Part shown: positions 7,427 through 10,996 of the stretch, piece by piece
Position numbering within the stretch: position 1 is the first letter of the stretch
How the letters are laid out: every line of letters begins with the position of its first letter
Source: an uncultured delta proteobacterium
Lineage (GTDB): Bacteria > Desulfobacterota > RBG-13-43-22
Length of the DNA stretch: 64,000 nucleotides
Direction of reading: 5' to 3'
Assembly (NCBI GenBank): GCA_963790475.1
Contig: CAWBOS010000012.1
Coordinates: 512,001-576,000 of the forward strand
The notes under the pieces: generated by a model
Databases searched by the model: none
What the model saw: only the letters and a program-made list of their open reading frames with translations
Told to the model about the DNA's origin: nothing
Position numbers and translations under genes: made by a program

Positions 7427-8439
7427 ATGTTTGAGGCCCGCTTGTACCAAAAAAAGGAAGACCAGAAGGTCTGGTGCTATTTATGCAGTCATCGTTGTTT
7501 GATCAAAGACGGCAAACGAGGGATCTGCGGGGTTCGGGAGAATCAAGGCGGGACCCTCTACTCCTTAGTCTATGGAAAGCCCATTGCCGCTCATGTGGAT
7601 CCCATTGAAAAAAAACCTCTCTTTCATTTCTTACCCGGTTCCACCTCTTTTTCCATAGCCACCGCCGGATGTAATTTCCGCTGCCTCTTTTGCCAGAACG
7701 CCGATATTTCTCAAGCCGGGAAAATGAAAAGTATTCCCGGGCAAGAGACGGCCCCGGAAGAAATCGTCTCTGCTGCCCTTACAGCGCCCAGTGCCGGTCC
7801 ATTTCCTATACCTATACGGAACCGACCATCTTTTTTGAATATGCCCAGGACATCTCCCTCCTGGCTGAGCCCCAGGGGTTAAAAAATGTCTTCGTTACCA
7901 ATGGCTATATGACCCAGGAGATGCTTGATTCCATCCATCCTCATCTTCACGCTGCCAATGTCGACTTGAAGGCCTTTCGCGATAATTTTTATAAGACCCA
8001 ATGCGGGGCCAAATTGACCCCGGTTTTAGACACGCTGAAAAAAATGAAAAAATTGGGGATCTGGGTTGAGGTAACCACCCTGATCATTCCCACGCTTAAC
8101 GATTCCAAAGAAGAATTAAGCGAATTGGCCAGGTTCATTGCCGATGATCTGGGAGCGGAGACCCCCTGGCATATCAGTCGATTTCATCCCACCTACGAGC
8201 TTACCCACTTACCATCAACACCGGTCAAAACATTGCGGCAAGCCTGGGAAACCGGTAAGGAAGCGGGTTTGCGTTATGTCTACACGGGTAATGTTCCCGG
8301 AGACGCCGGAGAAAAAACCACCTGCCATCATTGCGGACAACTGCTCATTGATCGTTTCGGATTTTCCATTTTGAAAAATTTTCTGCAGCAAGGGAAATGT
8401 CCTCGCTGCCAGACTCCGATGGATGGTTTCGGTTTATAA
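7427..8439 (+). CDS. amrS: AmmeMemoRadiSam system radical SAM enzyme, split by a frameshift near 7780-7790
   Basis: CYLCSHRC..CGVR, VDPIEKKPLFHF and GCNFRCLFCQN in ORF 7427..7882; SYTYTEP, VTNGY, NVDLKAF and HISRFHP in overlapping ORF 7690..8439. Confidence 0.9.
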
Positions 8440-8524
8440 AAAAAAAGAAGAGCGAGAATCGCAGGAAGAAAAGAATGGGGATTAAAAAAAAATTAATTTT
8501 TTTTAAAATAAATGTATTTTTTTC

Positions 8525-8577
8525 TTGACATACTATATATAGTAGAATAAAATTTTCCAAAATACTATATATAGGAA
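8525..8577 (+). promoter_or_regulatory. sigma70 promoter overlapped by tandem NrdR-box-like operators
   Basis: TTGACA (8525)-17-TAAAAT (8548); ATACTATATATAGTAG (8530-8545) and ATACTATATATAGGAA (8562-8577), 32 bp apart. Confidence 0.7.
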
Positions 8578-8590
8578 AGGAGGAACTATC

Positions 8591-8794
8591 ATGGCAGCAA
8601 CCAAAAAAGCAAAGGCTCCTGCAAAAAAGACTGTGAAAGCCGCCCCCAAGAAGGCCGCTAAAACAGCCAAGAGCCCAAGCAAAAAGGCAACAGCCAAGAA
8701 GGCCCCGGCTAAAAAAGCCCCGGCCAAAAAGGCTGCTGCCCCAAGCCCCGGCAAAAAGGCCCCGGCCAAAAAAGCCCCGGCCAAAAAGAAATAA
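8591..8794 (+). CDS. Histone H1-like Lys/Ala/Pro-rich nucleoid protein
   Basis: 67 aa with repeated KKAPA/KKAAA pentamers; strong RBS AAAGGAGGA. Confidence 0.85.
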   Translation: MAATKKAKAPAKKTVKAAPKKAAKTAKSPSKKATAKKAPAKKAPAKKAAAPSPGKKAPAKKAPAKKK

Positions 8795-8847
8795 CCTTCT
8801 GGTTGTTGTGCTGTTGGGTAGTTAAATTTTTTCTTAACCTCTTTAAG

Positions 8848-8901
8848 GGAAGGATGGAATTTCTTCCTATAGAAGGAATTCCGATGTACCTTCCTTTTTT
8901 T
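8848..8901 (+). terminator. Probable intrinsic terminator between convergent genes
   Basis: GGAAGG..GGAATTTCTTC-CTATA-GAAGGAATTCC..CCTTCC hairpin followed by a T-tract. Confidence 0.55.
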
Positions 8902-10996
8902 ATTTTGTAGAGGGGCTTTTTTCGATTCGACAGGGAAAAGCACGCAGATTGGGGGTTCCCATCGCCGGATCGAAGGGTTCCCCGGCCGTCAGGATATTCA
9001 AATTGGACCTGTCCCAGTCAAAAAGGGACTCCACCTTTTCCTCAGGAAACCACCAGCCATAATCCAAGAAAACAACCCGCGGGTCCAAACTTTCGGACAG
9101 GTGAACTTTTTGTTCTATCCGCCCCTTAGGGGTTATAATGCGGGCCCAATCTCCTTCGGTCAGACCAATAATCTTAGCCGCCGCCGGATGGATTTCCAGA
9201 ATAGGGTCCGGATGCTTTTTCCTAAGCGCCGAAATCTGCCGATAGGATGAATGAAAAAAATGGAAATTTTTTCTACTGGTAGCCAGCAACGGATATTCCA
9301 AAGAAACGAGGGGAAGTTGCGAAAAAGCCGGCAGCGGATCAAATCCCCAGCGTTTAAGCCGTTCTGAAAAAAGCTCCACTTTCTTGGACGGCGTCTTGAA
9401 TCCATTGACTTCATATTTTTTATAATCCGATTTCCCTTTGAGGATCCCCAGTTTCTTAAACCGGGAATAATTCATTCCTGCCGGGGCCAATACCTCATCC
9501 AGGGCCTCATGATAGTCCTCCCAAAAATGATCTCCATGCCCCAAGGCCTTGCCCAACTCGCTCAGGATCTTTATGTCCGGCCAGCTTTCTCCCGGAGGAT
9601 CGACAATCTTCGTACGGGATGAAATCCAGCCCTGGGCCAAACCATAATGTCCGATGTCATCGAACTCAAAACCGGTGGCCGCCGGCAGGACGATATCGGC
9701 CAGGGCGGCCGTAGGGGTCATGAATATTTCCGAAACCACCAGAAGGTCGAGCCGCATCAAAGCCTCGTAGGTTCGCCGGGCATCGCAGTTGGTGATCAAG
9801 GGATTGGTGGACTGGGCCACCATGGCCCGGACCGGGTAAGGCTGTTGGGTCAGGATGGCCTGAACGACTGTAGGTTGGGGCACGATCATAAAATTGGGGA
9901 TCAGATTGAAGGCCCGGCTCAGCATCTTTTGGGCCTTGTCCGGCAACAGATCCGCTTTGACAAAATCAGCCAGCCGGGCCACCGGCGGCATGGAAGGCAG
10001 GATATTGCCACCCGGTATATCCAGGTTGCCGGTTATGGCCATCAAGCAAATCAATGCCCGGCAGGTCTGCAGGCTGTTGACCGTATGCTCGATGGCATTG
10101 CCCCATTGGATGACGGCCGGTTTAGAGGTGGCGTAAGTCCAGGCCGTCAGGGTGATCTCCTCCGGGGTCAGCCAGGTGAGTTCGGCCACCCGTTCCGGCG
10201 TAAAGGTCTCCACCTGTTCTTTCAATTCCTGAAAACCCACGGTCCATTGATCCACGAACTCGCGGTCAAACAATCCTTCCCGGATGATAATATGGATCAA
10301 ACCCAGGGCCAGGGCGATGTCGCTTCCAGGTTTTAGTTGCAGATGACTTTGGGCAATGGAAGCCAGATGGGTCTTCCGGGGATCAACGACGATCAGGTCG
10401 GCCCCTTTTTTTATGGACTCCGTCAGGCGTAGAGCAATAATCCCTTCTTCATTACTCTTAAGAAGATTGCTGCCCCAATTCAGAATAAGACAGGTTGGGA
10501 CTTCATAATCCGGGACCGGGAAAAAACCGCAGGTGACCTGCCCGGCGATTTCCCGGGGCATGTGACAGACATGCTGCGGGCCGCAGACATTGGGAGACCC
10601 GAAGACATTGGCCAGACGGATCAGGACAAAATGCTCCAATCCTTTAGGAGCCCCTTGGGCAAAGACCACGGCCTGAGGTCCTTGTTCCCGACGGATGCGG
10701 TTCAGATTTTCAGCGATAAAATGAAGGGCCTCAGTCCAGGATATCGGTTTCCATTGGCCTCCACCACGGGCCCGCTGTCGGAGCAACGGCCGGGTCAGAC
10801 GATCGGGGTGGACCGTTCGCTCGAAAGAAGCCAAACCCTTGGGACAGATATACCCATGGCTGACAGAACATTGGGGATCCCCTTTGATCGTTTTGATCCG
10901 GCCCTCCTGGACTTCGATCAAGAGACCGCACCCCCCAGGATCCATTCGTGAGCAGTGGGTCTTGAAGATTTGGGTTTTGGTGTTTTCGCGGGGCAT
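8900..10996 (-). CDS. Molybdopterin (Mo/W-bis-PGD) oxidoreductase catalytic subunit, acetylene-hydratase-like family
   Basis: ICPKG...HPDRLTRPL, ISWTEAL, GSPN...QHVCH (Cys ligand), VVDPR, MTPTAALADIVLP, TPSKKVEL and a C-terminal molydopterin-binding domain; start MPRENT at 10996 with RBS AAAGGA; no Tat signal. Confidence 0.88.
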   Translation of the reverse strand: MPRENTKTQIFKTHCSRMDPGGCGLLIEVQEGRIKTIKGDPQCSVSHGYICPKGLASFERTVHPDRLTRPLLRQRARGGGQWKPISWTEALHFIAENLNRIRREQGPQAVVFAQGAPKGLEHFVLIRLANVFGSPNVCGPQHVCHMPREIAGQVTCGFFPVPDYEVPTCLILNWGSNLLKSNEEGIIALRLTESIKKGADLIVVDPRKTHLASIAQSHLQLKPGSDIALALGLIHIIIREGLFDREFVDQWTVGFQELKEQVETFTPERVAELTWLTPEEITLTAWTYATSKPAVIQWGNAIEHTVNSLQTCRALICLMAITGNLDIPGGNILPSMPPVARLADFVKADLLPDKAQKMLSRAFNLIPNFMIVPQPTVVQAILTQQPYPVRAMVAQSTNPLITNCDARRTYEALMRLDLLVVSEIFMTPTAALADIVLPAATGFEFDDIGHYGLAQGWISSRTKIVDPPGESWPDIKILSELGKALGHGDHFWEDYHEALDEVLAPAGMNYSRFKKLGILKGKSDYKKYEVNGFKTPSKKVELFSERLKRWGFDPLPAFSQLPLVSLEYPLLATSRKNFHFFHSSYRQISALRKKHPDPILEIHPAAAKIIGLTEGDWARIITPKGRIEQKVHLSESLDPRVVFLDYGWWFPEEKVESLFDWDRSNLNILTAGEPFDPAMGTPNLRAFPCRIEKSPSTK

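Follow-up and report, generated by a model that had tools for sequence, protein, structure and literature searches.

In the 64,000-nucleotide stretch of DNA analysed here (the window), from an uncultured relative of sulfate reducers, a short gene for a lysine-, alanine- and proline-rich polycation is preceded by two 16-bp palindromic boxes that lie within its promoter and resemble the operators of NrdR, which the available text of recent literature (e.g. PMC12051234) presents as the repressor of ribonucleotide reductase (RNR) operons. From the sequence comparisons set out below, we consider it probable that the boxes work as an NrdR operator and that the gene is real and encodes a nucleic-acid-binding polycation. 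The operator is of the canonical NrdR type, and the new element is the gene that it would control.

Tandem boxes in the promoter of a 67-aa ORF

The initial annotation had placed two matches to the NrdR consensus acaCwAtATaTwGtgt at 8530-8545 (13/16) and 8562-8577 (12/16), one in the promoter spacer and the other just 5' of the ribosome-binding site (RBS). These coordinates and scores proved exact, and the positions agree with both a promoter scan and the sequence itself. The proposed distance of 32 bp is likewise confirmed by a 13-bp exact direct repeat (ATACTATATATAG), found by pattern search at 8530-8542 and 8562-8574. When up to two mismatches were allowed, this 13-mer had six matches in the window against 0.40 expected (the maximum in 100 shuffles was 2), four of the six being the two boxes counted on both strands because the boxes are palindromic.

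All elements of the gene lie on the plus strand. The promoter scan identified a sigma-70 promoter made up of a TTGACA -35 hexamer (8525-8530), which is invariant in 17/17 orthologous copies, a 17-nt spacer and a TAAAAT -10 hexamer (8548-8553), for an 11/12 match. Predicted NrdR box 1 (ATACTATATATAGTAG, 8530-8545), which includes a perfect 14-bp palindrome (TACTATATATAGTA), starts at the last base of the -35 hexamer, and the rest of it fills the spacer between -35 and -10. It is followed by a 16-bp linker (8546-8561) that holds the -10 hexamer, with transcription predicted to start near 8560. Predicted NrdR box 2 (ATACTATATATAGGAA, 8562-8577) covers the expected start-site region, and its end at 8577 abuts the RBS AGGAGG (8578-8583), which stands 7 nt 5' of the ATG at 8591. 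The Lys/Ala/Pro-rich ORF of 67 aa occupies 8591-8794.

A conserved T-rich block (TGTATTTTTTTC, 8513-8524, plus strand) adjoins the -35 hexamer on its upstream side and is probably an UP-like element; its column conservation in 17 orthologous upstream regions is 0.88, versus 0.51 farther upstream. The word formed by the T-tract and TTGAC (TTTTTCTTGAC) is met 68 times across the genome, and the sequence behind it varies, a pattern that marks it as a general promoter feature lying outside the operator. The same observation led us to reject the idea that the box-containing promoters of this genome are duplicates of one another.

Downstream of the ORF, we tentatively assign a terminator-like hairpin (8845-8897; MFE -34.1 kcal/mol, z = -2.07) that with its T-rich run spans 8845-8906 on the plus strand, a hairpin absent from the output of a consensus terminator scan. 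Together the hairpin and T-rich run separate the 67-aa ORF from a convergent molybdopterin oxidoreductase gene, and with such a structure between convergent genes the 67-aa gene looks monocistronic. An Rfam search of 8300-9000 gave no RNA family above chance (best E 0.071, far under the gathering score). A 136-aa ORF on the minus strand (8533-8943) mirrors the low-complexity repeat of the coding strand and was set aside. Next to the 67-aa gene on its 5' side, a radical-SAM gene (7427-8439) is read in two overlapping frames (7427-7882 and 7690-8439), both of which match Radical_SAM; this split is a frameshift or an assembly error.

We compared the boxes with the published description of NrdR sites. 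In the available text of PMC13584703 and PMC12051234, a site consists of two 16-bp boxes separated by a linker of 15-16 bp, with key positions C4, A6, A8, T9, T11 and G13 in each box and at least 63% A/T from C4 to G13; PMC13584703 adds, in the same available text, that the linker is constrained by length and not by sequence. Both boxes in the window have all six key bases, and their C4-to-G13 stretch is 100% A/T. The 16-bp linker falls within the 15-16 bp range and puts the box centres three helical turns apart. These features support the view that the pair is an authentic NrdR operator, to which NrdR is predicted to bind. NrdR proteins are also reported to bind sites from other organisms (PMC13584703).

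Conservation of the boxes and of the gene

The collection used for comparison holds 21 species genomes of the order, within Thermodesulfobacteriota, to which this genome belongs, all of them from one family; with relatives confined to one order and 21 species, the conservation described here is shallow in depth and the genomes are not independent of one another. The exact RBS-to-start word (GAAAGGAGG-N7-ATGGCAGC) was found in 17 copies in 16 of the 21 genomes, and the five genomes without it are 76-93% complete. The initial annotation had asked whether the boxes are conserved upstream of orthologues, and they are: the promoter and both boxes are kept in every one of these 17 gene copies (16/21 genomes). 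By column, conservation across the 17 copies reaches 1.00 in the -35 hexamer, 0.95 in the -10 hexamer, 0.92 in box 1 and 0.90 in box 2; it drops to 0.65 in the remainder of the linker and to 0.51 in the far upstream sequence. Low conservation of the linker is as expected if, as the available text of the NrdR literature has it, its length is constrained and its sequence is not.

In box 1, variation is found mostly at positions 5 and 12, which are the 'w' positions of the consensus, and in one genus this box is a perfect 16-bp palindrome (ATACCATATATGGTAT). In box 2, G13 is kept in 7/17 copies and lost in 10/17, while a G stands at position 14 in all 17. The available text of PMC13584703 reports that a C-G distance of 9 bp (the G moved by one base) in one of the boxes is tolerated in vitro. 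The position-14 G belongs to the conserved GAAAGGAGG, so that its conservation need not reflect NrdR, and the right half of box 2, which overlaps the RBS-constrained region, is the least conserved part of either box.

The coding sequence is under constraint as well. Across three ungapped blocks that cover 31 codons in 14-15 orthologues, synonymous variation was seen at 20 codons and non-synonymous variation at 1, and the length differences between orthologues are in-frame indels in the repeat region. Together with the strong RBS, the in-frame indels and the 20:1 ratio of synonymous to non-synonymous change indicate a real gene under purifying selection. A frameshift some 16-20 codons into the gene affects two copies (one in genome G008, the other being the second copy of G014), with promoter and boxes intact; these are assembly errors or recent pseudogenes. 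Among 20 genomes of the same phylum but of other families, none had a match to the protein, and in a scan of public genomes the gene appeared, among the matches listed, only in records of Thermodesulfobacteriota, Deltaproteobacteria or delta proteobacterium MAGs.

NrdR and its predicted sites in the genome

The initial annotation had made its proposal depend on the presence of nrdR, and one nrdR gene was found. Its product scores 188.7 bits against TIGR00244 (cut-off 124.65), has the Zn_ribbon_NrdR (PF22811) and ATP-cone (PF03477) domains, and is encoded in a glyA / deaminase / nrdR / ribD-like cluster. Asp15 and Arg17 are both present in the translated gene; a 2026 mutational study identifies them, in its available text, as the contacts to C4 and G13 (PMC13584703). 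nrdR was found in 20/21 family genomes, the remaining genome being 76% complete.

We then turned to the RNR genes. The promoter of the genome's own nrdD (class III RNR) contains TTGACATACCATATATTGTAT, in which TTGACA runs into box 1, and ATACAAGATAAAGGAT 31 bp on; this box-pair layout is present in 18/20 nrdD upstream regions of the family. No tandem boxes were found for the class II gene nrdJ (C10:920700-921316, split into two profile hits), and 1400 bases including its upstream region contained no Rfam riboswitch. Since nrdJ has no tandem boxes, NrdR appears to leave part of the RNR genes uncovered here.

The architecture seen at nrdD is widespread. In an exact-word scan of public species-representative genomes, with 80 loci inspected among the matches listed, TTGACATACYATATATDGT precedes nrdD-like, nrdJ-like and nrdR genes in several phyla, as expected of a common NrdR architecture. 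In Paenibacillus chitinolyticus, a 47-aa Ser/Lys-rich ORF lies behind a TTGACA-plus-box-like promoter with no canonical second box seen. In Gammaproteobacteria, about 2-6 bp separate TTGACATACCATATATGGTAT from a second, similar repeat that ends in GGTATGTGG (among the matches listed), and short ORFs that by eye look like toxin-antitoxin genes lie downstream. This gammaproteobacterial repeat appears from its sequence to be a different operator that mimics the NrdR box, and it means that AT-rich palindromes of this type are not exclusive to NrdR. A transcription factor other than NrdR might accordingly be imagined to read the palindrome in the present lineage, the more so as the similar palindromes before the toxin-antitoxin-like ORFs are paired with a different second repeat. 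We find this extremely improbable: all six key positions of the universal NrdR logo match, the linker has the NrdR-specific length of 15-16 bp, and the same motif marks nrdD in the family and the RNR and nrdR genes of the other phyla just described.

How specific the boxes are within the genome was assessed in two ways. First, the 6.34-Mb genome (estimated contamination of the assembly, 9.68%) contains 14 instances of the strict core C[AT]ATATAT[AT]G, and two of the 14 are these boxes. Second, a symmetrised matrix was derived from the family's nrdD boxes (20 unique sequences) and zero histone-like sites, which avoids circularity. By this nrdD-derived matrix box 1 scores 19.2 bits, making it the 4th best 16-mer genome-wide, and box 2 scores 16.4 bits. 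As a pair they reach 35.5 bits and rank 3 in 6.34 Mb, behind the site of an IS200/Y1-transposase-like gene and that of nrdD, a top-ranked pair that itself belonged to the matrix training set. The comparison with nrd promoters that the initial annotation had suggested thus comes out in its favour, with nrdD showing the same layout and the histone-like pair third in the genome. Over spacings of 16-70 bp, pairs in which each box has at least 8 bits and the sum is at least 25 turned up solely at 31 bp (five pairs) and at 32 bp (two pairs). A random sample of 3000 AT-rich windows of 253 nt from the genome gave best-pair scores with a 99th percentile of 6.9 bits, and eight windows reached at least 20; the maximum equals the nrdD site, showing that true sites fell within this sample.

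Several of the other tandem-box sites precede genes that are conserved together with their boxes. The first is smc (1202 aa, SMC_N plus hinge), whose boxes lie upstream at C10:773872-773918, 31 bp apart, with 30.9 bits; they stand just upstream of a T-tract and a TTTACA -35 hexamer and are conserved in 21/21 family genomes. The second is a 61-aa Cys-rich ORF (L023 2421-2606) with a TTGACA-plus-box promoter and a second box 32 bp on (C12:413842-413889). It has no Pfam family, its boxes are present in all 16 genomes that have the gene, and it is probably a core member of the NrdR regulon. The third is a pilM-like gene heading a pilus-assembly-like operon, with boxes at C18:4719-4765 and C12:1446177-1446223 that lie upstream of -35 and recur in 10/11 close orthologues, all from one genus; in the C12 copy, stops interrupt the gene.

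The second-best pair in the genome (C12:179805-179851, 37.3 bits) precedes the IS200/Y1-transposase-like gene at C12:179921 (L024 1422-2279). We rejected this gene as a regulon target, having found boxes in 0/15 other homologous loci of its multi-copy family; the site is a genome-specific one or a captured promoter. A weaker tandem pair (22.7 bits) was also observed beside a T-tract plus TTGAC promoter in two inverted repeat copies (C10:479012 and C10:823892).

With these sites in hand, we considered whether the boxes of the 67-aa gene are kept for reasons of promoter function. A bendable, A/T-rich sequence in the spacer and at the start of the transcript would then tune a very strong promoter, and its likeness to NrdR sites would be incidental. 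TATA-rich sequence is common in promoters, the boxes lie within elements that are already constrained (the spacer, the start site and the RBS flank), and the lower conservation of the right half of box 2 would fit such an origin. It would not account for C4 and G13, which flank the A/T core of box 1 in 17/17 copies, nor for a phasing of 31-32 bp that is unique among spacings of 16-70. The motif is moreover found at nrdD, and at smc and pilM it lies upstream of -35, where there is neither spacer nor start-site constraint, while other T-tract plus TTGAC promoters lead into unrelated sequence. We therefore hold an incidental resemblance to be very improbable and retain the NrdR operator as the reading of the two boxes.

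The encoded polycation and the predicted role of NrdR

The initial annotation had called the gene product histone H1-like. Of its 67 residues, 25 are Lys, 23 Ala and 9 Pro; it has AKKAP-type repeats, a pI of 11.38 and a mass of 6.7 kDa, and the label holds for its composition (Lys/Ala/Pro repeats, pI above 11). It does not hold as a profile match: Pfam returned 0 families at E<=10, HC1 (PF07432) and HC2 (PF07382) included. In a sequence homologue search that scored 8000 candidates (36-118 residues), no hit reached E<=0.001, and the NCBIfam search gave the Rv3852 family only, at 17 bits against a cut-off of 100. These blank searches are probably due to low complexity and filtering and are no sign of a lone protein. 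In the Atlas, which uses a protein language model, its neighbours are short hypothetical proteins, with one cluster carrying HC2 on 17% of its members (a weak signal). The label is therefore compositional with one weak Atlas lead, and DNA binding is a prediction from these features. What the sequence suggests is a small, highly basic protein that is probably disordered and nucleic-acid-binding.

In their Lys/Ala/Pro low-complexity repeats and extreme basicity, chlamydial Hc1/Hc2, Pseudomonas AlgP and the tail of mycobacterial HupB are like the 67-aa protein. Hc1/Hc2, AlgP and HupB are DNA-compacting proteins. Compared with Hc2 and AlgP, the 67-aa protein is much shorter, lacks a folded domain and has no detectable membership of a sequence family. 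A polycation of this kind could bind other partners, and NrdR might control a protein that targets RNA, ribosomes, polyphosphate or membranes and not the nucleoid. The absence of a family assignment in Pfam and in the homologue search, with the NCBIfam Rv3852 hit far below threshold, leaves room for this. We nevertheless judge it unlikely, as two DNA-centred genes, smc and nrdD, belong to the co-regulated set, and the Atlas neighbour cluster is partly annotated HC2; in addition, the composition is one that we take to match the DNA-binding tails of H1, Hc2, AlgP and HupB. A role at the nucleoid is thus the reading that we carry forward.

The available text of PMC12051234 describes NrdR with dATP and ATP as a tetramer that binds two boxes, and NrdR with ATP alone as non-binding oligomers. 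On this basis, when dATP is plentiful a NrdR tetramer loaded with dATP and ATP would sit on both boxes of the 67-aa gene. With box 1 in the -35/-10 spacer and box 2 over the start site, bound NrdR should block RNA polymerase, and we expect that it would exclude the enzyme here as at nrdD. Once DNA synthesis outruns supply and the dATP signal drops, NrdR would leave and the near-consensus promoter would fire together with that of nrdD. nrdD, smc and the polycation gene might in this way be released together, so that packaging proteins would be made while DNA is made.

The sign of the regulation could be the reverse, with NrdR binding as an activator or a weak modulator and expression rising with high dATP. 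There is a precedent in Pseudomonas aeruginosa, where according to the available text of PMC4409342 NrdR up-regulates topA, and the smc and pilM boxes, lying upstream of -35, are compatible with activation. At the 67-aa gene the boxes lie over the core promoter and start site exactly as at nrdD, which is the classic position of a repressor, and we think activation there distinctly improbable. Repression remains our preferred reading for this promoter.

The presence of the same operator at smc suggests that NrdR couples the production of chromosome-packaging proteins to dNTP demand. Extending this, the dATP/ATP sensor NrdR may in this order reach beyond RNR genes and act as a replication-coupled chromosome regulator of nrdD, an H1-like polycation and SMC, joined in one genus by a pilM-type operon, and so be a bacterial counterpart of the coupling of histones and RNR in S phase. 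We advance this broader view tentatively, since the comparisons of sequence on which it draws leave us with slightly more doubt than conviction. In the eukaryotic S phase, expression of histone genes and RNR genes is coupled. The likeness to the present proposal is that chromatin proteins and dNTP-producing enzymes are made together at replication; the machinery is entirely unlike, and in the bacterium one nucleotide-sensing repressor would itself bring about the coupling.

The operator has close relatives among known systems. In the available text on them, the RNR operators of E. coli (nrdAB, nrdHIEF and nrdDG), Streptomyces coelicolor (nrdRJ and nrdAB) and Listeria (nrdDG) consist, as here, of two partially palindromic 16-bp boxes with a 15-16 bp linker and the key positions C4, A6, A8, T9, T11 and G13, and they overlap the RNA polymerase site; the nrdD promoter of this genome has this construction too. 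They differ in what is controlled, which here is a 67-aa polycation and not an RNR. By the available text of PMC4409342, the described targets of NrdR were all RNR genes until topA, and that of PMC5343134 describes small NrdR regulons, with a mean of 3.2 genes, devoted to deoxyribonucleotide biosynthesis. The closest precedent found, P. aeruginosa topA (DNA topoisomerase I), is as far as the available text goes like the present case a non-RNR target tied to DNA topology or structure, and it shows that an NrdR regulon can extend past dNTP synthesis. It differs in having a single box, in being activated and in encoding an enzyme, whereas the tandem pair here lies over the core promoter, which implies repression, and the targets are architectural.

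Among the results listed by our literature search, no paper linked NrdR to histone-like, nucleoid, SMC or chromosome-segregation genes, and none reported NrdR regulation of Hc1/Hc2, AlgP or HupB; an earlier prediction may exist in RegPrecise or in Rodionov and Gelfand 2005. One candidate paper, PMC4989314, was unrelated in its available content. The search agrees in this with the initial annotation, which had not recognised such a link as described.

The conserved sites would provide a natural set of non-RNR operators for working out the binding rules of NrdR, and the 61-aa Cys-rich protein is likely to take part in the metabolism of DNA or its precursors. If our proposal is true, a dNTP sensor would also set the levels of nucleoid-structuring proteins, through the histone-like gene and smc, and this would offer bacteria a simple means of keeping chromosome packaging in step with replication.
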